Source: Escherichia coli
Lineage (GTDB): Bacteria > Pseudomonadota > Gammaproteobacteria > Enterobacterales > Enterobacteriaceae
Direction: 5' to 3' (one strand)
DNA: 64,000 bases
Assembly: GCF_965641715.1 (NCBI RefSeq)
Contig: NZ_OZ282455.1
How positions within the stretch are numbered: position 1 is the stretch's first letter; every line of letters starts with the position of its first letter. A program made the position numbers and the translations under genes. The notes under the pieces are model-generated. The model was not told where the DNA came from. It saw only the letters and a program-made list of their open reading frames with translations, and ran no database searches. Positions 1 through 25,503 of this stretch are shown here, piece after piece.

Positions 1-390
1 CTCATCTCCCTTTTCTATTGCTGTATGCATATACAGTATTCTAATAACTGAATCCACACACAGTCAAATGTCATTATTGTGACTAAAAAACGCTCAATTC
101 TCTGAGCGTGTGGCTGTATGCCTGCTGTGGACTGCTGTGTCCAGCTTATCCACAGCATTTTGCGCACGGTTCTGTGGACAAAATACCTGGTTACCCAGGC
201 CGTGCCGGCACGTTAACCGGGCTGCATCCGATGCAAGTGTGTCGCTGTCGCCGGCCTCCTCACCCGGTCACGTTTCGTCGTTCCTCCTCCACGCGCTGCG
301 GCTTCGGGGCCGCACCTGCATTCGTATGCGGTCGCCCGGTTACAGGTGCGGCACGGCCTGATGGAGGCCGCATGTGAGAGGAGAATTCCC

Positions 391-3103: not shown

Positions 3104-3874
3104 ATGAACAAAACGCTGAATGCACTGGTTTGTCGTCACGCCCGTAACCTGCTGCTGGCGCAGGGCTGGCCGGAAGAGACGGATGTTGACCAGCGAAATC
3201 CGAACTATCCGGGCTGGATCAGCATTTACGTGCGGCTGGATGCGCCCCGGCTGGCGACGTTACTTATCAACCGTCACGGCGGCGTACTGCCGCCGCTCCT
3301 GGCCTCCGCCATTCAGAGACTGACCGGAACCGGGGCGGAACTGGTACTGTCCGGCAGTCAGTGGCAATCGCTGCCGGTACTTCCGGCAGACGGAACGCAG
3401 GTGTCTTTCCCGTATGCCGGAGAATGGCTGACCGAAGACGAAATCAGGGCTGTTCTTGATGCGGTGCACGATGCGGTACGAAGCATCTGTTACCAGGTGG
3501 CAGACGATGCGCGGCGTATCCGTGCGGCGCTGACCACCACCGGTCAGACGTTGCTGACCCGCCAGACGCGCCGCTTTCGCCTGGTCGTGAAGGAAAGCGA
3601 TCACCCCTGCTGGCTCGATGAAGATGACGAAAACCTGCCCGTGGTGCTCGATGCCATCGTGAACCGGGGAGCACGTTTTTCGTCGGTGGAAATGTACCTG
3701 GTCAGCGATTGTATTGAGCATATCCTGTCCAGTGGGCTGGCCTGCGATGTGCTGCGTATACCTGATGAATCGCCCCGCCGCTGGTTTGACCGTGGTGTTC
3801 TGCGGGAGGTGGTCCGGGAAGCCCGGACCGAAATCCGCAGCATGGCGGATGCCCTGGCAAAAATCCGGAAATGA
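3104..3874 (+). CDS. hypothetical protein (256 aa)
   Basis: Track ORF 3053..3874; ATG at 3104 follows a stem-loop (3056..3082) and a GGGAGA SD-like sequence. Confidence 0.55.
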
Positions 3875-3882
3875 TGACACTG

Positions 3883-3905
3883 GCGGGGAAAATCCCCGCC
3901 TTTTT
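3883..3905 (+). terminator. Rho-independent terminator
   Basis: GGCGGGG-aaaat-CCCCGCC hairpin followed by TTTTT directly after stop of 3104..3874. Confidence 0.5.
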
Positions 3906-3932
3906 CCTGCCGGTCCCCGGACAGAGCACAAA

Positions 3933-4270
3933 GGAAGTCGCCGCCGGCTCCGCTTTACCCGGCCATGCAGAGCATGGCCTTGTGGTTTTCAGTTATGTGG
4001 CCTCAGCGTCGTGTGCGGGCTGTGCCGTGCCTCCATCTTAGCCGGGCTGGCGTTGATGCAAGGGTACGCTTCGCCGCTGCGGTCACCCGGTCCCTCCTTC
4101 CCGTCTGCCGTGATTTTCCGGTCGTTCACCCGCTCAGATTTCGCGGTCTCACCCTCCAACTCCCGCCAGCCGTGTGCGTCAGGCTGCGGCTTCCCTTGCG
4201 CCCCTGCATCCCCGCCTTATCGCCCGGCTTTTCTGGAGGCACGGCACCGCCCGGTGTCGCGGAATATGTG
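3933..4270. repeat. dispersed leading-region repeat, family A copy 1 (candidate ssDNA promoter / ssi element)
   Basis: About 340 nt nearly identical to 10878..11218; GC-rich, non-coding, ends about 20 nt before klcA start. Confidence 0.7.
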
Positions 4271-4289
4271 AACAACGGAGGAAAACATC

Positions 4290-4715
4290 ATGCAATATGC
4301 GAAACCTGTCACTCTGAACGTTGAAGAGTGCGACCGTTTGTCTTTTCTGCCTTACCTGTTTGGCCAGGATTTTCTGTATGCCGAAGCGTCTGTATACGCG
4401 CTGGCGAAACAAATGATGCCGGAATATGAAGGCGGATTCTGGCACTTCATCCGCCTGCCGGACGGTGGCGGTTACATGATGCCGGACGGTGACCGTTTCC
4501 ACATGGTGAACGGTGCAAACTGGTTTGACCGTACCGTGAGTGCTGATGCCGCAGGCATCATCCTTACCTCCCTTGTGATTAACCGCCAGTTGTGGCTGTA
4601 CCACGACAGCGGGGATGCAGGACTGACCCAGCTTTACCGGATGCGCGATGCGCAGTTGTGGCGTCACATCGAATTTCACCCTGAATGCAACGCGATTTAC
4701 GCAGCACTGGACTGA
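4290..4715 (+). CDS. klcA: KlcA/ArdB-family antirestriction protein
   Basis: 141 aa; RLSFLP, GGFWHF and C-terminal AIYAALD motifs matching my memory of KlcA/ArdB. Confidence 0.8.
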
Positions 4716-4761
4716 TTAACGGACGGGGCGGCAATGCCGCCCCTGTAAAGGAGACGAGAAC

Positions 4762-5184
4762 ATGTACTGTACTGTTAAAGAAATTATCCGTGATGTACTG
4801 GATACAGACGTGCCGGACAGTGAATGCGTTTTTGCCGTGGTGCTGACCCGTGGGGATGTGCGTCACATAGCCCAGGACTGGAGTCTGACAGACGATGAGC
4901 TGGAAACCGTCATGCAGCGGCTGGACGATGCCTTTGAATATGGTGCGGATGTCAGCGTTGTTCACGGCGTTGTTCGTGAACTGATGGAAGAAAAGCGCGC
5001 CAGCCGTCAGGTGACAGTCCCGGCGGTGATGCTGGAAAAAGTGATGGCGCTGGCAGGCAGTGAAATGAAGCGCCTGTATGCCGTCGGGAGTGAGAACGGG
5101 GGCGACGGTGACGCATTCGTCAGGGAGGAACGCGAAGCAATGGACGTTGTGTTACAGGCGCTGGACGGGGAGACGATGTCATGA
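4762..5184 (+). CDS. hypothetical protein (140 aa), paralog of 2619..3053
   Basis: Track ORF with GGAGACGAG SD; shared motifs with 2619..3053. Confidence 0.6.
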   Translation: MYCTVKEIIRDVLDTDVPDSECVFAVVLTRGDVRHIAQDWSLTDDELETVMQRLDDAFEYGADVSVVHGVVRELMEEKRASRQVTVPAVMLEKVMALAGSEMKRLYAVGSENGGDGDAFVREEREAMDVVLQALDGETMS

Positions 5185-5411: not shown

Positions 5412-6125
5412 AAAACCCCTGGCAGGCTGACGCCTGCCGGAAATGCGGGGTGCAGCGCCTGCGGCGCTGCCGGCCCGGCTTTCCGGTCAGAAGGTAGTGT
5501 ATGGCTGTATGCAGGGAACAGGTGTGATATTCCGTGACACTGTCACTGTTTCTGGCTGTCTTTTATTGCGCCCACTTCGGCTCCCGGCTGCCTGGCGGCA
5601 TCCGGTCGTCAGGCCCGACTCCGACAGGCAGCTGCTGGCGCACCCGCCAGTCTCCGCCGAACCCGCTGGCGCGGTTTCGGGCTGCCGCTACGGTCCGATG
5701 CGTGAAAACCCGGCTTGCAGCGACCGTTCCGGTCGCGCCGCCCCTGTCGCGCCGTGACCTGCGCTCCCTGCACACCTGACGGTGTGTGAGGAAACTGCGC
5801 CTGATGGCGCAGCAGTCTTCCCTCCTGCCGCCACCCCTGCGGCCTGTTTCCCGCTGTGGACTTTCCGGGGGGCAGACGTAACCCCCTCCCGTTCCATCTG
5901 TCCAGGGTGAGATGCACCGGCCACAAAATTTTTAGCCATGAACCCGGCTAAAAATTTTGCGTCCGCCCCCGGACAGCTGTCCCGTGAGGCGGTAAACGGG
6001 CCCCCATCGGAAAGGTCCACTGCGGGGAGAAACCCCTGTGAAGTGGACGGCAGGAGGAGCTTTCGCTCCTCTGAAGGGGCACATGAACGTCCCGTCGCCG
6101 GTATCCGGTTTATCTCACATCTTTC
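5412..6125. repeat. dispersed leading-region repeat, family B copy 1 (candidate ssDNA promoter / Frpo-ssi-like element)
   Basis: About 700 nt highly similar to 11782..12445; 3' part (about 5745..6125) also shared with 14961..15315; contains AT-rich palindrome CAAAATTTTTAGCC-N9-GGCTAAAAATTTTG; ends at ssb SD. Confidence 0.7.
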
Positions 6126-10181: not shown

Positions 10182-10774
10182 TGAAATCAGACGAACAATA
10201 TCACGTTCCCGTGTGGATGCGACCTCTGTTGCCGTTGCTCTGCAATACCGGTGGTAATGATCCGGAGGAACTGCTGAATGATACAGAAACCACCGCCAGT
10301 GCGAATATTGTCCGTTATGTACTGATAGTTGCAGTGCGGTCGCAGATTGATCTGCTGCAGCTACTGTACAGGAAAGGACTGTTGCGCACAGAGATACCAG
10401 GTGGCTTTTCACCGGAAGAAGCGCAGGAACTCCTGGATAATCTGGTGCGCAGCCATATCAGCAAGGCGCTGTCGGGTGAGCGAATGGCAGCCCGTGACAG
10501 AAATGCCGATCTGACCTGGATTCGCCAGCAACTGGTCGATGCCGCCTGGTTTGTCCGTGCCACACTGGAAGCGCATGGGATGGGCGTCGGAAATGAGAGT
10601 CCCTCTGCTCCGCCGGAGACAATGCCGGACATACAGACACGGGAACTGGTTATGTTGATCAAGCGACTGGCATCATCGCTGAAAGCGGTGAAACCCGACA
10701 GTAGCGTGGTGCGTGAAGCGCAGGACTGGCTGTGCGACAGAAAACTTGTGGATATCACAGATATTCTCCGGTGA
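10178..10774 (+). CDS. hypothetical protein (198 aa)
   Basis: Track ORF 10145..10774; ATG at 10178 overlaps psiA stop. Confidence 0.55.
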   Translation: MMKSDEQYHVPVWMRPLLPLLCNTGGNDPEELLNDTETTASANIVRYVLIVAVRSQIDLLQLLYRKGLLRTEIPGGFSPEEAQELLDNLVRSHISKALSGERMAARDRNADLTWIRQQLVDAAWFVRATLEAHGMGVGNESPSAPPETMPDIQTRELVMLIKRLASSLKAVKPDSSVVREAQDWLCDRKLVDITDILR

Positions 10775-10877
10775 ACCAGACATGTATATTTTACGCAGGG
10801 ACACGCCGATCATGATCGTTTCATATCAGGGGTGGTCTGGAGGTCATGCGGCGTGTCCTCTGCACTCGCCGGAATAA

Positions 10878-11218
10878 GGAAGTCGCCGGCGGCTCCGCTT
10901 TTACCCGGCCATGCGGGGCATGGCCTTGTGGGTTTTCAGCTCTGTGGCCTCAGCGTCGTGTGCGGGCTGTGCCGTGCCTCCATCTTAGCCGGGCTGGCAG
11001 GGATGCAAGGGTACGCTTCGCCGCTGCGGTCACCCGGTCCCTCCTTCCCGTCTGCCGTGATTTTCCGGTCGTTCACCCGCTCAGATTTCGCGGTCTCACC
11101 CTCCAACTCCCGCCAGCCGTGTGCGTCAGGCTGCGGCTTCCCTTGCGCCCTGTGCATCCCCGCCTTATCGCCCGGCTTTTATGGAGGCACGGCACCGCCC
11201 GGTGCCGCAGAACATGTG
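10878..11218. repeat. dispersed leading-region repeat, family A copy 2 (candidate ssDNA promoter / ssi element)
   Basis: Near-identical to 3933..4270; ends about 18 nt before ardA start. Confidence 0.7.
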
Positions 11219-11236
11219 ACTATGGAGGATTCGGGA

Positions 11237-11737
11237 ATGTCTGTTGTTGCACCTGCTGTATACGTTGGAACCTGGCACAAATACAACTGTGGAAGTATCG
11301 CCGGACGCTGGTTTGACCTGACCACGTTTGATGATGAGCGCGACTTTTTCGCCGCCTGCCGTGCTCTTCACCAGGATGAAGCCGATCCTGAACTGATGTT
11401 TCAGGATTATGAGGGATTCCCGGGGAATATGGCCTCTGAATGCCATATCAACTGGGCCTGGGTTGAAGGCTTCCGCCGGGCACGGGATGAAGGCTGCGAA
11501 GAGGCTTATCGTCTCTGGGTGGATGATACCGGTGAGACGGATTTTGACACCTTCCGCGATGCCTGGTGGGGCGAGGCTGACAGTGAGTAGGCTTTTGCGG
11601 TTGAGTTCGTCAGTGATACCGGCCTGCTGGCTGACGTGCCGGAGACGGTGGCGCTCTATTTTGACTATGAGGCGTATGCGCGGGATTTATTCCTGGACTC
11701 CTTCACCTTTATTGACGGTCATGTGTTCCGTCGGTGA
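11237..11737 (+). pseudogene. ardA: ArdA antirestriction gene interrupted by in-frame TAG at codon 118
   Basis: [20 protein letters not shown]... matches ArdA; reading frame stops at TAG 11588..11590 (…GEADSE*) and resumes in frame with the ArdA C-terminus (AFAVEFVSDTGLLADVPETVALYFDYEAYARD…RR*) to TGA 11735..11737. Confidence 0.85.
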
Positions 11738-11781
11738 TTTACTCCCCCGCTCCGGCGGGGGTATGGCCTGCCAGGCCGCCG

Positions 11782-12445
11782 GAAAACCCTGGCAGGCTTA
11801 CGCCTGCCTGAAATGCAGGAGGGCCGCGCCTGCGGCGCTGCCCTTCCTGCCCGTCATGGTGTGAGGCATTTTTCTGTTATGTCGTTTCTGTTGTTCTGAT
11901 TTCCGGAGGCGGGGACACCTTCGGCTCCCGGCTGCCTGGCGGCATCCGGTCGTCAGGCCCGACTCCGACAGGCAGCTGCTGGCGCACCCGCCAGTCTCCG
12001 CCGAACCCGCTGGCGCGGTTTCGGGCTGCCGCTACGGTCCGATGTCTGAAAAACCAGGCTTGCAGCGACCGTTCCGGTCGCGCCGCCCCTGTCGCGCCGG
12101 AAACGGCGCTCCCTGCACACCTGACGGTGTGTAAGGCCACTGCGCCTGATGGCGCAGTCAACCCTTCCGCCGCCACCCCTGCGGCCTGTTTCCCGCTGTG
12201 GACTTTCCGGGGGCTGGAGTAACCACATCCCGTTTCAGCAGTCTAGGGGAAGATATACCGTCCACAAAATTTTTAGCCATAAACCCGGCAAAAAATTTTG
12301 CGTCCGCCCCCGGACAGCTGCCCCGTGACGTGGTGACGGACGCCCCATCGGAAAGGTCCACTGCGGGGAGAAACCCCGAAGAAGTGGACGGCAGAAGGGG
12401 CTTTCGCCCCTCCGGGGAGCAACCGGTCGGCCCGGCGACCTGATT
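11782..12445. repeat. dispersed leading-region repeat, family B copy 2
   Basis: Similar to 5412..6125 over about 660 nt; ends at SD of ORF 12466. Confidence 0.7.
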
Positions 12446-14855: not shown

Positions 14856-14960
14856 TTTTGCTTGTAAATGTCGTGCGGTTTTCTCTGTTTTCACCTGTGC
14901 GGGAGTGGTGTGCCAGTGACCACCACATGCCATTGTTGTGCCGTCGTTTTTCTTCAGTCG

Positions 14961-15315
14961 CGCCGTATGCGGCGCTCCCTGCACACCTTACGGTGTGTAA
15001 GGCCACTGCGCCTGATGGCGCAGCTGTCTCTGCCTGTCTGCCGCCGCACTGCGGCCTGTTCTCCGCAGACGGACTTTCCGGGGGTACATACATGACCACA
15101 TCCCGTTTCAGTCGTCCAGGGGAGAGATGTACCAGCCACAAAACTTTTTGCCGCAGGCGTCAAAAACTTTTGCGTCTGCCCCCGGACAACTGCCCCGTGA
15201 CGTGGTGAGCGTCCCCCGTCGGAAAGGTCCACTGCGGGGAAATCCCCGAAGACCCGGACGGCAGAAGGAGCTTCGCTCCTCCGGGAAATGACCTGGCTGA
15301 CCCGGCAGTCGTGAC
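14961..15315. repeat. dispersed leading-region repeat, family B copy 3 (3' unit only)
   Basis: Matches only the 3' about 355 nt of copies 1 and 2; ends at SD of ORF 15330. Confidence 0.65.
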
Positions 15316-15329
15316 GATGAGGAGACAAT

Positions 15330-16181
15330 GTGATGAATCAGACTTTACCCACTGCTGACCTGAATACTGCCGGCACGACAGATGTTATTCCGTCTGTGGC
15401 TATCGACCGCATCATCGCGCAGCGTAACGAAGGTATTGCACTGTTCATGCAGGCGATGGAATGCCTGGCGACAGCGCGCAAGATTCTGCTCGATGCGTCA
15501 GGTGATATTTTTCTTTACGGGTTTGAAGACTGCGTGACTGATTCCGTTCGTCGCATAGATAAACCGGAAGAAGCGAAAAGGAATATCACCCGTCTTGCCG
15601 ACCGGAAAATCTGGGATCGCCTGATGACAGATACGGGCATGTACACCTTCATGAGTTCATGCCAGCGTGATGAGTGGAACAGCCAGCTGATGAGCGACAC
15701 CTGTCCTGAAATCACCCTGGACAATGTACTGGCAACATTCCGCCATCTGAATGCCTGCAAGATGCAGACATTTGAACAGGGACTGATTGATGTCTACCGG
15801 AAATTGTCATGGGATTACAGAACCAATAATCCCTGCCGTCTGGGTAAGAAAATCATTATTGAAAACCTGCTGTACCGCTGGAGTAACGGGCGTGTGACGC
15901 TGGACTGCAGCGGACGGGAGGCACTGGATGACCTGGTACGTCCGTTTTATCTGCTGGAGGGGCGCAACGTTCCTGACTTCAGGAACAGTATCGGGGCGCA
16001 GTATGGTGAATTTCTCGGGAACGGCGACAATGTCGGTAAGCTGTTAGAAGGGGAATATTTTACGGTGCGTGGCTACCAGAAAGGGACCGTACACATTGTC
16101 TTTAAGCGTTCTGACCTTGTTGAAAAACTGAATGATATTATTGCACGGCATTATCCAGGTGCATTGCCGCCACGAGTCTGA
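15330..16181 (+). CDS. hypothetical protein (283 aa), oriT-proximal leading gene
   Basis: Track ORF with GAGGAGA SD; hairpin plus T-run after stop. Confidence 0.6.
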   Translation: MMNQTLPTADLNTAGTTDVIPSVAIDRIIAQRNEGIALFMQAMECLATARKILLDASGDIFLYGFEDCVTDSVRRIDKPEEAKRNITRLADRKIWDRLMTDTGMYTFMSSCQRDEWNSQLMSDTCPEITLDNVLATFRHLNACKMQTFEQGLIDVYRKLSWDYRTNNPCRLGKKIIIENLLYRWSNGRVTLDCSGREALDDLVRPFYLLEGRNVPDFRNSIGAQYGEFLGNGDNVGKLLEGEYFTVRGYQKGTVHIVFKRSDLVEKLNDIIARHYPGALPPRV

Positions 16182-16266
16182 TTAAACAGAAAAGCCCTGG
16201 TATTTATGCCGGGGCTTTTTTTTCTGTAATCATCATAATCTCAGAACACGATGTGACATTGTCACA

Positions 16267-16602
16267 TCAATTGTTGTTCATATCGATGCCATCTTTCCTG
16301 CCTGAATCTGTCTTTTTAGGTGCTGTTTTAGAGGAAGAACGGCGGGATGGTTTTTTCGATTCTGCTTCCCGAATAATGTCACGAAGTGCCTTCTCTCCTA
16401 CTTCATACCCTGCATTTTTGAGCGTGTCACGAACATCTGCCAGTGTATAACCCTTTGTCCTTACCAGGACAATAATGTCATCACGAATGGCATCAAGAAA
16501 ATCACGCAATGTTTTCCGTTGAGCGGTGAGATCTGGCAATTCCGATAAAGCAGCTTTTGCCAGCTGGATGTCATCATCTGAGTAAAATTTTTTAGAAGCC
16601 AT
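16267..16602 (-). CDS. hypothetical small protein with basic C-terminal tail (111 aa)
   Basis: Track ORF 16267..16608 (GTG); ATG at 16602 with GGAGAG SD; tail SKKPSRRSSSKTAPKKTDSGRKDG suggests nucleic-acid binding. Confidence 0.5.
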   Translation of the reverse strand: MASKKFYSDDDIQLAKAALSELPDLTAQRKTLRDFLDAIRDDIIVLVRTKGYTLADVRDTLKNAGYEVGEKALRDIIREAESKKPSRRSSSKTAPKKTDSGRKDGIDMNNN

Positions 16603-16660
16603 TGGCACTTTCTCTCCGTTTCATGTTGAAGTCTGATTTTATCATCAAAAACTGACTCCT

Positions 16661-16791
16661 GGCAGGGCTGCGCCCTGCCTCTGCCGTCTGCATAAGACTA
16701 TGATGCACAAAAATAACAGGCTATAATGGCCTGAAAAACGGGACAGGATGTGCAATTGTAATACCGTCACACGCGACGCTATTACAATTGC
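16661..16791 (-). other. oriT: oriT (origin of transfer) with predicted nic site on the - strand
   Basis: 12-bp inverted repeat GCAATTGTAATA / TATTACAATTGC (16752..16763, 16780..16791); on the - strand the repeat is followed by ACATCCTG then TCCC, matching the IncP-type nick consensus ATCCTG|Y, which places the nick between + coordinates 16744/16743, 8 nt from the repeat; second palindrome GGCAGGGCTGCGCCCTGCC at 16661..16679; directly upstream of nikA. Confidence 0.7.
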
Positions 16792-16835
16792 CATCTGGTC
16801 AGGGCTTCGCCCCGACACCCCGTAAGGAGCCTGAA

Positions 16836-17168
16836 GTGAGTGATAGTGCGGTAAGAAAGAAAAGTGAGGTACGGCAAAAGACAGTTGTCAGGACACTCAG
16901 ATTCTCTCCTGTTGAGGATGAAACCATCAGGAAAAAAGCTGAAGATTCCGGACTTACTGTATCTGCTTACATCCGAAATGCAGCACTGAATAAGCGAATT
17001 AACTCCCGTACAGATGATGCTTTTCTGAAGGAGTTAATGAGACTGGGAAGGATGCAGAAGCATCTGTTTGTTCAGGGAAAAAGAACCGGTGACAAGGAAT
17101 ACGCAGAAGTGCTTGTTGCCATAACCGAACTTACAAATACATTGCGTAAACAGTTAATGGAAGGTTGA
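16836..17168 (+). CDS. nikA: relaxosome accessory protein NikA
   Basis: Track ORF 16788..17168; GTG at 16836 after AAGGAG gives 110 aa; adjacent to oriT and nikB. Confidence 0.85.
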   Translation: MSDSAVRKKSEVRQKTVVRTLRFSPVEDETIRKKAEDSGLTVSAYIRNAALNKRINSRTDDAFLKELMRLGRMQKHLFVQGKRTGDKEYAEVLVAITELTNTLRKQLMEG

Positions 17169-17178
17169 GGATTCTCCG

Positions 17179-19878
17179 GTGAATGCAGTCATTCCAAAAA
17201 AGAGAAGGGACGGCAAGTCTTCGTTCGAAGACCTGGTATCCTACGTCTCTGTCCGGGATGACATGACCGATGAGGAACTGGATTTATCTTCTTCTTCGCA
17301 GGCTGAACAACCGCACCGAAGCCGTTTCAGTCGCCTTGTTGATTATGCGACACGTCTTCGAAATGAGTCATTCGTGGCGCTGGTTGATGTCATGAAGGAC
17401 GGCTGCGAATGGGTCAACTTTTATGGTGTCACCTGCTTTCATAACTGTACTTCTCTTGAAACTGCCGCTGCAGATATGGAGTACATTGCCCGGCAGGCAC
17501 ACTATGCAAAAGATGACACTGATCCTGTTTTTCACTACATTCTTTCCTGGCAGTCACATGAAAGCCCGCGTCCGGAACAGATTTATGACAGTGTACGTCA
17601 TACGCTGAAATCACTCGGCCTTGCCGACCATCAGTATGTCTCTGCCGTGCATACTGATACAGATAATCTGCACGTCCATGTGGCTGTTAACCGGGTACAC
17701 CCTGAAACGGGTTATCTGAACCGGTTATCCTGGAGTCAGGAAAAACTCAGTCGTGCCTGCCGTGAGCTTGAACTGAAGCATGGTTTTGCTCCGGATAACG
17801 GTTGCTGGGTCCATGCACCGGGAAATCGTATCGTTCGCAAAACCGCCGTTGAACGTGATCGCCAGAACGCGTGGACACGCGGGAAAAAACAAACTTTTCG
17901 CGAGTATGTCGCGCAGACAGCGGTCGCTGGTTTACGCAGTGAACCTGTAAATGACTGGTTATCCCTGCATCGTCGTCTTGCGGAAGATGGTCTGTACCTG
18001 TCTCAGATGGACGGAAAATTTCTGGTGATGGATGGCTGGGATCGCAACAGGGAAGGTGTACAGCTTGACTCGTTTGGTCCCTCCTGGTGTGCAGAAAAAC
18101 TCATGAAAAAAATGGGTGACTACACGCCAGTACCAAAAGACATTTTCAGCCAGGTGGAAGCACCAGGACGCTATAATCCGCACTTCATTGCCGCTGATGT
18201 TCGCCCGGAAAAAATCGCTGAAACAGAAAGTCTGCAGCAGTATGCCTGTCGTCATCTTGGAGAACGTCTGCCGGAAATGGCACGGGAAGGACGGCTGGAA
18301 AACTGCCAAGCTATTCACCGCACACTGGCTGAAGCGGGATTATGGATGCGTGTTCAGCATGGTCACCTGGTTATCTGTGACGGTTATGATCATAACCAGA
18401 CTCCCGTTCGTGCTGACAGCGTATGGTCGCTGCTGACGCTCGACAATGTGAATCAACTCGATGGTGGCTGGCAGCCTGTACCAACAGATATTTTCCGCCA
18501 GGTTACGCCAACAGAACGCTTCCGTGGTCGTCGTATGGAGAGCTGTCCTGCGACCGATAAAGAATGGCACCGTATGCGTACAGGCACGGGGCCGCAGGGG
18601 GCTATCAAACGCGAACTGTTTTCTGACAAAGAAAGTCTGTGGGGATACAGCATCAGCCATTGTAGCCCTCAGATTGAAGAAATGATCACACAGGGTGAGT
18701 TTACCTGGCAGCGTTGTCATGAGCTGTTTGCACAACAGGGACTGATGCTACAGAAACAACATCACGGGCTTGTTGTCGTTGATGCCTTTAATCATGAGCA
18801 AACGCCGGTGAAGGCCAGCAGCATTCATCCTGATCTGACACTGGGGCGTGCAGAGCCACAGGCCGGACCTTTTGTGAGTGCCCCAGCAGATTTGTTTGAC
18901 AGGGTGCAACCTGAAAGTCGCTATAACCCGGAGCTGGCTGTCAGTGACAGGTACGGGGTCAGCAGTAAACGTGACCCAATGCTGCGCCGGCAGCGACGTA
19001 AAGCCAGAGCTGAGGCCCGTGCTGACCTGCGTGCCCGCTATCTGGCATGGCGTGAACAATGGCGTAAACCAGATCTGCGTTATGGGGAACGTTGTCGGGA
19101 AATTCATCAGGCATGCCGTCTGCGGAAGTCACACATTCGTGCGCAGTACGATGATCCGGCATTACGTAAGCTGCATTATCACATTGCAGAAGTTCAGCGA
19201 ATGCAGGCATTGATCAGGCTGAAAGAAGACATCAGGGATGAGCGACAGAAACTTATTGCTGACGGGAAGTGGTATCCACCCTCTTACCGTCAGTGGGTCG
19301 AAACTCAGGCTGCTCAGGGAGACAGGGCTGCTGTATCGCAGCTGAGAGGCTGGGATTATCGCGATCGCCGTAAAGACAGGTCACGCACAACGACGACAGA
19401 CCGCTGTGTCGTGCTTTGTGAACCGGGCGGAACGCCGGTATACGGTAATACCGGTGATCTCGAGGCCCGTCTGCAGAAGAACGGGAGTGTTCGTTTCCGT
19501 GACCGTCGGACGGGAGAGTTTGTCTGTACGGATTATGGTGACAGGGTTGTTTTCCGTAATCACCATGACCGCAATGCGCTGGCAGATAAACTGGATTTGA
19601 TTGCACCGGTATTATTCGGGCGTGATCCTCGCATGGGTTTTGAACCAGAAGGAAACGACAAACAATTTAACCAGGTCTTTGCTGAAATGGTTGCCTGGCA
19701 TAATGTGACAGGCCGTACCGGTCACGAAGACTACAGGATTACGCGACCGGACGTGGATCATCACCGTGAAGGAAGTGAACGCTACTACCGCGATTATATC
19801 GCGGCGAACAGCAACGATGACGCATCACTGCCTCCGCCGGAGCAGGATAAACGCTGGGAACCGCCTTCTCCAGGTTAA
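17179..19878 (+). CDS. nikB: relaxase NikB (MOBP family)
   Basis: 899 aa; histidine triad HTDTDNLHVHVAVN typical of relaxases. Confidence 0.95.
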   Translation: MNAVIPKKRRDGKSSFEDLVSYVSVRDDMTDEELDLSSSSQAEQPHRSRFSRLVDYATRLRNESFVALVDVMKDGCEWVNFYGVTCFHNCTSLETAAADMEYIARQAHYAKDDTDPVFHYILSWQSHESPRPEQIYDSVRHTLKSLGLADHQYVSAVHTDTDNLHVHVAVNRVHPETGYLNRLSWSQEKLSRACRELELKHGFAPDNGCWVHAPGNRIVRKTAVERDRQNAWTRGKKQTFREYVAQTAVAGLRSEPVNDWLSLHRRLAEDGLYLSQMDGKFLVMDGWDRNREGVQLDSFGPSWCAEKLMKKMGDYTPVPKDIFSQVEAPGRYNPHFIAADVRPEKIAETESLQQYACRHLGERLPEMAREGRLENCQAIHRTLAEAGLWMRVQHGHLVICDGYDHNQTPVRADSVWSLLTLDNVNQLDGGWQPVPTDIFRQVTPTERFRGRRMESCPATDKEWHRMRTGTGPQGAIKRELFSDKESLWGYSISHCSPQIEEMITQGEFTWQRCHELFAQQGLMLQKQHHGLVVVDAFNHEQTPVKASSIHPDLTLGRAEPQAGPFVSAPADLFDRVQPESRYNPELAVSDRYGVSSKRDPMLRRQRRKARAEARADLRARYLAWREQWRKPDLRYGERCREIHQACRLRKSHIRAQYDDPALRKLHYHIAEVQRMQALIRLKEDIRDERQKLIADGKWYPPSYRQWVETQAAQGDRAAVSQLRGWDYRDRRKDRSRTTTTDRCVVLCEPGGTPVYGNTGDLEARLQKNGSVRFRDRRTGEFVCTDYGDRVVFRNHHDRNALADKLDLIAPVLFGRDPRMGFEPEGNDKQFNQVFAEMVAWHNVTGRTGHEDYRITRPDVDHHREGSERYYRDYIAANSNDDASLPPPEQDKRWEPPSPG

Positions 19879-24496: not shown

Positions 24497-24648
24497 GACA
24501 AAGTCTCCATTTCTGGAATTTAAATCAAACGGAAAGGTTAAAAATTTATTTGCAGGCGATAAGAGCTAACCAGAGGAATTAGCCGTGCGATAAAAGGATT
24601 GTTGCAGATACGAAAGTCGTTAGAATAGCTGCGGGCGCTTGAGGCTGT

Positions 24649-24933
24649 ATGCCGAAAGCGTTTTGTGGACGGTATACAGCAGAAAGCCCCTGGAGATTTT
24701 TTTATCAATCAACCAAGGGCTCTACTGTAATGCCTAGACAACATTATAGTAGCCCGATAACCGCCGTAAGGCAATGGAGGGGCTATGATGCCACAGCGAA
24801 CGTTTTTAATGATGTTAATCGTCATCTGTGTGACGATTCTGTGTTTTGTCTGGATGGTGAGGGATTCGCTTTGCGTACTCCGGCTCCAGCAGGGAAACAC
24901 AGTGCTTGTGGCAACGTTAGCCTACGAAGTTAA
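24649..24933 (+). CDS. pndC: PndC-like (Mok-equivalent) overlapping reading frame
   Basis: Track ORF overlapping pndA in another frame, as in hok/mok loci; true start probably internal. Confidence 0.4.
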   Translation: MPKAFCGRYTAESPWRFFYQSTKGSTVMPRQHYSSPITAVRQWRGYDATANVFNDVNRHLCDDSVFCLDGEGFALRTPAPAGKHSACGNVSLRS

Positions 24934-25263: not shown

Positions 25264-25416
25264 CGGATTTTCTCTCTGTATTTATGGGTAGTTATCGAAC
25301 TGAATGTGCCAGTTTTTTCAGGAGACGGCAAAGTTGAGATGATTGGTTCTGATTCAGAGCATGAGTTTCCTCGGTGTGACGGGCATGTCGGGCGGATTTT
25401 GAGAAACAACAGATGT

Positions 25417-25503
25417 AAAAAAACCGACTGGTGAGGTCGGTTTTTTTACTGTTCCGTTACAGAGTGGGTGGCCCTGACCGGAGGAAATCTCTTTTCAACT
25501 AAC
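25417..25503 (-). ncRNA. candidate trans-acting antitoxin sRNA (about 87 nt)
   Basis: - strand promoter TTGCTA-17 nt-TATTAT (about 25510..25540); 5' 24 nt complementary to 25667..25690; terminator A7-CCGAC-loop-GTCGG-T7 at 25417..25447. Confidence 0.45.

Follow-up and report, generated by a model that had tools for sequence, protein, structure and literature searches.

The window, by which we mean the whole stretch of 64,000 nucleotides analysed here, constitutes the leading region of a plasmid of the IncI1 type; in the database it matches an IncI-type plasmid best. Its genes run in the order DUF1281, methylase, klcA, ssb, parB-like, psiB, psiA, ardA, and nikA/nikB, which is also their order in pKL53-M and pESBL-EA11. 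The genes and landmarks needed first are given below.

4290..4715, + strand: klcA/ardB-type antirestriction gene, 3' of the first repeat copy; an open reading frame, annotated 'antirestriction protein' in the same context in pKL53-M and pESBL
11237..11738, + strand: ardA, 3' of the second repeat copy, identified from its translation; in-frame TAG at codon 118
16743..16755, - strand: putative oriT nick-region motif TTGCACATCCTG/T; an exact match, found once only, beside a 17-nt inverted repeat
5744..6074, 12089..12414, and 14955..15283: family B copies, 99% identical to ColIb-P9 ssi3, ssi2, and ssi1, respectively

We take the last-but-one of these features to be the R64/MOBP oriT nick-region motif. 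Because it lies on the '-' strand, the '-' strand is the transferred strand; as such, its coordinates fall as it enters, and it serves as the template of all of these genes. In ardA, the TAG codon (11588-11590) replaces Glu118 (GAG in pESBL) and reduces a 166-aa protein to 117 aa; a pseudogene, an amber mutant, and a sequencing error are all possible explanations. In pKL53-M, the closest relative, a group II intron reverse transcriptase gene (locus 15720-17387) lies between the klcA operon and ssb, near the ssi3 promoter; this insertion is absent from the window. We also note that Rfam identifies the sok antitoxin RNA (134 bits, 24633-24790) and AgrB (55 bits, 25415-25502), both beyond nikB and trbC.

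Directly upstream of klcA and ardA lie two copies of a repeat, termed family A, which an earlier note on this DNA had described as nearly identical over about 340 nt.

3931..4272, - (transferred) strand: class 2 ssDNA-promoter repeat unit, klcA copy; 95.1% identical to the ardA copy and homologous to pESBL
10876..11220, - strand: class 2 ssDNA-promoter repeat unit, ardA copy; from alignment to the klcA copy and homology to pESBL

Pairwise alignment bears this description out. Counted on the MAFFT alignment, 328 of 345 columns are identical (95.1%), and the differences comprise 14 substitutions and three 1-nt indels. A repeat finder likewise pairs 3984-4203 with 10931-11150 at 98% identity and 4205-4271 with 11153-11219 at 94% identity, segments that MAFFT merges into a single unit. 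The edges are sharp, as identity falls to only 30-39% in the flanks on both sides, and this drop shows that the coordinates first proposed (3933-4270 and 10878-11218) were right to within 2 nt. The klcA copy stops 18 nt 5' of the klcA ATG (4290) and the ardA copy 17 nt 5' of the ardA ATG (11237). A 342-nt repeat at 95% identity cannot be a chance occurrence, and the element is found in at least 5000 plasmid records. At four apical positions (window ~4131-4160 and ~11078-11107), one base occurs in both window copies and another in both pESBL copies, a pattern which suggests gene conversion between the two copies inside one plasmid.

The element is already known, having been published between 2024 and 2026 as the class 2, ssp2, or Frpo3 ssDNA promoter. 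According to Wen et al. (NAR 2025, PMC12672017), RNA-seq of pESBL revealed six operons induced in early transconjugants, each behind a transferred-strand hairpin; the klcA and ardA hairpins were named class 2 ssDNA promoters, class 1 comprises ssi1-3/Frpo and class 3 the M.EcoGIX promoter, and all six start sites were mapped by 5' RACE and matched the authors' predictions. The orthologue in F was independently named Frpo3 (bioRxiv 10.1101/2025.04.03.647016) and is the ssp2 of a 2026 preprint by Fraikin, Yamaichi, and Lesterlin (bioRxiv 10.64898/2026.01.09.698686). In our alignments, the regions upstream of pESBL klcA and ardA match both window copies at ~95% identity or better over the whole unit, and a near-identical family A copy lies 5' of the antirestriction gene of F. 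The pESBL class 2 elements and F ssp2/Frpo3 are thus alike with the window copies in orthologous sequence, strand, and hairpin, and the pESBL elements also in their positions 5' of klcA and ardA; nothing substantive separates pESBL from the window, in which only the ardA amber codon and a few apical positions differ. The window copies share with class 2 their place in the leading region directly 5' of klcA or ardA, the use of the transferred strand as template, sequence homology, and a transferred-strand stem-loop that rebuilds a -35 and a -10 element, albeit with an atypical 15-nt spacer. As such, the proposal that both antirestriction genes share an ssDNA-promoter module separate from the ssb-type element is supported, and Wen et al. 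classify the pESBL orthologues likewise.

Class 1 elements (F Frpo1/Frpo2 (ssiD) and ColIb-P9 ssi1-3; Masai and Arai 1997, Bates et al. 1999) follow the same principle of a leading-region, transferred-strand hairpin that rebuilds -35 and -10 elements. However, they have no detectable sequence similarity to family A, are less GC-rich, and have an A/T-rich apex. When the ssi sequences of Supplementary Table 2 of Samuel et al. 2024 were used as BLAST queries (word size 7), ssi1-3 were all placed in family B, with no match within 3931-4272 or 10876-11220; the two families are therefore unrelated, as had been claimed by eye, and the window copies do not belong to class 1 (Frpo/ssi). A closer relative is Frpo' 4, a candidate that Samuel et al. 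(Nature 2024, Supplementary Table 2) list from an insect-gut metagenome; it is 82% identical over ~340 nt and also lies 5' of a klcA-type gene. Frpo' 4 belongs to a diverged clade in Enterobacter, Klebsiella, and Raoultella plasmids, and this clade contributes compensatory changes to the stems of the spacer and the start site.

It might be supposed that the region codes for protein, as one GenBank record (pN17S1265) carries a CDS for a 190-aa 'DUF1472 domain-containing protein' (locus 1017-1589, window ~3747-4319) that runs across the hairpin and overlaps the klcA start, and long ORFs do occur in this GC-rich stretch. Yet no reading frame stays intact across both copies, given the three 1-nt indels that separate them, and the translations match neither Pfam (three translations searched) nor NCBIfam (two searched), findings which together exclude protein coding. 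Moreover, of 30 records sampled, 29 carry no annotation there, and conservation follows the pattern of paired arms. We regard the likelihood of a coding function as virtually nil, and the 'DUF1472' CDS is probably a legacy mis-annotation, since it has no current Pfam or NCBIfam match.

The earlier note had also proposed predicting the secondary structure of the transferred strand. When this was done, each copy formed a single long imperfect hairpin that is more stable than its shuffles.

4010..4256, - strand: long imperfect hairpin, klcA copy (~247 nt); DNA fold -84.9 kcal/mol, z -2.8 (a modest score); family-model match 120 bits; covariation
10957..11204, - strand: long hairpin, ardA copy; fold -92.0 kcal/mol, z -4.5; family-model match 116.5 bits

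Diverged relatives were sampled from Enterobacter, Erwinia, Pantoea, and Kosakonia plasmids as well as from F. A sequence-only family model was built from ten relatives, on an alignment of 254 columns, and then used to search the fetched loci, and covariation was assessed in an alignment of 22 copies from 8 sequence sources that was not fitted to any structure. RNAalifold assigned 29 pairs to this 22-sequence alignment, and 96.7% of the cells across the 22 copies can pair. Compensatory changes on both sides were found in 11 pairs, compared with 5.9 +/- 1.3 in column shuffles (0/500) and with only 1-4 when the 3' partners were slid by 1-3 columns, figures to be read in the knowledge that the structure was derived from the same alignment, that RNA energy parameters were applied to DNA, flattering the slid control, and that the sequences are related. 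The transferred strand has 16 G.T wobble cells and 2 A.C cells. Since these numbers are reversed on the opposite strand, the transferred strand is the one selected for folding.

The + strand folds too, if slightly more weakly (-77.8 kcal/mol, z -2.5), as would be expected if the element acted at the RNA level through a structured mRNA leader or a small RNA from that strand. This is extremely unlikely in light of the wobble count, which favours the '-' strand by 16 to 2, and of an Rfam search of the whole window at gathering score, which matched only sok and AgrB elsewhere and gave no match at the element. In addition, the start predicted below lies in the gene-proximal arm and would yield a transcript without most of the hairpin, and a terminator-like hairpin at 3961-3979 would halt upstream read-through.

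If the hairpin acts as a promoter on the transferred strand, its 3' arm would supply the promoter elements, for which we propose the following assignment.

4056..4061, - strand: putative -35 TTGCAT, klcA copy; in the 3' arm, base-paired, with a conserved G.T wobble at its first T
4035..4040, - strand: putative -10 TAAGAT, klcA copy; in the fold, both outer T's pair, and a 4x4 internal loop holds the four inner bases
11003..11008 and 10982..10987, - strand: putative -35 TTGCAT and -10 TAAGAT, ardA copy
4241, + strand: predicted klcA start, the A of GGAGGCACGGC, 7 nt past the -10 in the invariant GCACGG block; 5' UTR ~49 nt
11189, + strand: predicted ardA start; leader ~48 nt

Among the distinct family rows, the three positions of the 3'-arm TTG are conserved in 20/20, 20/20, and 19/20, and those of TA...T, 15 nt past TTG, in 19/20, 20/20, and 20/20. 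The inner -10 positions and the bases that face them are variable, while GCACGG, six to eleven nt past the -10, is invariant, as is its complement GCCGTG. Both predicted leaders contain GGAGG. Because the four inner bases of the -10 lie in the 4x4 loop, this region would be pre-melted, and because the geometry makes the 5' arm the template, RNA polymerase would leave the stem base toward klcA or ardA. The spacer measures 15 nt on the non-template arm, which is short for sigma-70, but 19 nt on the template arm by way of a conserved 4-nt bulge; since the arms differ in this manner, the hexamers that we infer may differ from the assignment of Wen et al.

These results also bear on the view that each repeat is just a conventional double-strand promoter, or else an inert leftover of a duplication that regulates nothing. 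The similarity of the copies makes recent duplication or gene conversion certain, and the four apical positions agree within plasmids and differ between them. However, a consensus scan of 3700-4400 and 10650-11350 found no sigma-70 -35/-10 pair with a 16-18 nt spacer on either strand. Compensatory changes across genera preserve the hairpin, which would not be expected of an inert relic; nor would the published transconjugant-specific induction, or the loss of early expression and of transfer into restricting hosts that follows deletion of the F copy. We consider this view largely refuted already and highly improbable.

Two smaller motifs accompany the hairpin within the klcA-copy unit.

3961..3979, + strand: small terminator-like hairpin, GGCCATGC-AGA-GCATGGCC followed by TTGTGGTTTT; from a terminator scan
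3931..3941, + strand: edge motif AAGGAAGTCGC, the gene-distal border of the unit; exact match

The ardA copy has an equivalent small hairpin with a T-rich tail at 10907-10925 (+), and in both units it lies on the side of the large hairpin away from the gene. In the Enterobacter copy, the small hairpin persists with changed stem bases. The structure looks like an intrinsic terminator that would insulate the promoter from upstream read-through. Exact matches to the edge motif, written as AAGGAWGTCGC, occur in the window only at 1363-1373, 3931-3941, and 10876-10886 (+), and the fetched loci contain 11 exact matches, every one of them in a leading region. Those that could be placed, in six other plasmids, lie either where a class 2 or class 2-like copy ends on its gene-distal side or within an interval homologous to 1320-1700.

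This last interval is directly 5' of the DNA methylase gene (ATG 1701) and forms a very stable hairpin on the '-' strand (-109 kcal/mol, z -5.6). It is likely the class 3 promoter of Wen et al., and we favour it over a weaker element at 197-357 because that paper sets a cut-off of -75 kcal/mol and speaks of a position '5' of M.EcoGIX'. Class 3 (ssp3, 5' of M.EcoGIX) is likewise a leading-region hairpin promoter before an anti-restriction function, and its window counterpart shares the AAGGAWGTCGC edge, although its hairpin sequence differs from that of family A; a search of the candidate with the family model gave no convincing similarity (8 bits, E 0.24). A RefSeq 'hypothetical protein' CDS spans the homologous stretch in pESBL and F and may be spurious.

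The element at 197-357 is a third member of family A, and the claim that there are only two copies in the window therefore requires correction.

197..357, - strand: third family member, shorter and diverged; 49.1 bits, E 4e-14, with a family model built without this copy
231..236, - strand: its putative -35, TTGCAT
210..215, - strand: its putative -10, TAACGT
353, + strand: its predicted start

This copy lies 34 nt 5' of the ATG (391) of a DUF1281-family gene, retains TTGCAT-N15-TAACGT and the GCACGG block, and folds at -60.5 kcal/mol (z -3.2). It occurs in 4486 plasmid records, with identity reaching at least 99% in 4271, and the family model also finds elements of this third type in pESBL and F. 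The homologue of the DUF1281 gene in F (locus 3811-4781) is split into two overlapping ORFs and is apparently a frameshifted pseudogene. Wen et al. (PMC12672017) mined hairpins with a cut-off of -75 kcal/mol. As the third copy folds more weakly than this, it is probably absent from the six published pESBL promoters and unreported.

Further members were found in Erwinia, Pantoea, and Kosakonia plasmids, 5' of DNA methylase, klcA-type, and DUF1281 genes, and both the third copy and the methylase-type relatives are only ~160-195 nt long. With such varied downstream genes, the family is tied strongly, but not exclusively, to anti-restriction functions. The suggestion that the module is dedicated to antirestriction needs qualification, as relatives precede DUF1281 genes (one of them in the window) and DNA methylase genes and the F copy also acts as a roadblock. 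Whether class 2 is one branch, the most familiar, of a broader superfamily of hairpin promoters on the transferred strand, which would include DUF1281-type members (in IncI1 and F-type plasmids) and methylase-type members, with IncI1 carrying two long-stem, roadblock-type copies and F one, seems to us an evenly balanced question. The pattern GCCGTG...CCGGGCG...GAACGGGTGAG...CCCTTG-N15-TAnnnT-N6-GCACGGC may be common to all members. If this proposal is true, the DUF1281 hairpin would bring the promoters of pESBL-type plasmids to seven and those of F to five.

Taken as a whole, it is very likely that both repeats are class 2 ssDNA promoters that fire klcA and ardA from the incoming single strand. 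The repeat, its homology, strand, fold, covariation, and motif conservation come from the present analysis, and induction, start sites, promoter dependence, and roadblock activity come from the work of others on orthologues and would extend to the window by analogy. During conjugation, the '-' strand of the window would enter the recipient first and in single-stranded form, allowing the GC-rich inverted repeat of ~247 nt to fold into a long imperfect hairpin. The 3' arm, TTGCAT-15 nt-TAAGAT, would then serve as the non-template strand of a sigma-70-type promoter, with the -35 in duplex and the inner bases of the -10 kept open by the 4x4 internal loop. Host RNA polymerase would initiate near the stem base (~4241 and ~11189, +) and run off the hairpin into klcA or ardA. 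Because the hairpin would be transcribed on the single strand, the antirestriction proteins would precede double-strandedness. Synthesis of the complementary strand would then abolish the hairpin and with it the promoter, leaving a transient burst of expression. The stem probably also stalls complementary-strand synthesis until it is unwound by UvrD, which would prolong the single-stranded phase for genes closer to oriT.

This last step raises the possibility that the element is mainly a structural replication roadblock or a priming site on the incoming strand, with transcription secondary. In F, 3' ends of the nascent complementary strand stall at the stem end of ssp2, in a manner that is rifampicin-insensitive and resolved by UvrD, as reported by Fraikin et al. 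(bioRxiv 10.64898/2026.01.09.698686). Moreover, a GC-rich stem of 247 nt exceeds what a promoter needs, given that ~160-195 nt suffices in the third copy and the methylase-type relatives. Contrarily, the conservation of TTG and TA...T on one arm only, together with the invariant start region, points to selection for promoter function. The same preprint reports that F lacking ssp2 makes half as much PsiB and transfers less well into restricting hosts, and that replacing ssp2 with ssp3 restores transfer against a type II system, so that transcription matters. There, ssp3 is reported to have no roadblock activity, and class 1 elements are reported to prime complementary-strand synthesis rather than block it. 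A mainly structural role therefore has only a slim chance of being correct. The roadblock is real for F, and the two functions add to each other without being mutually exclusive; from their homology to the F copy, the window stems probably act as roadblocks as well, and the ardA copy may be presumed to do so on the same grounds.

Hairpin promoters of this kind decide whether an incoming resistance plasmid outlives host restriction in the first minutes. For the window, the outcome is confident annotation rather than discovery: class 2 promoters number two and class 1 promoters three, beside one likely class 3 promoter and a probable further family member 5' of DUF1281. Finally, the family alignment provides a sequence and structure signature with which such promoters, at present unannotated or sometimes mis-called as genes, could be annotated in plasmid databases.
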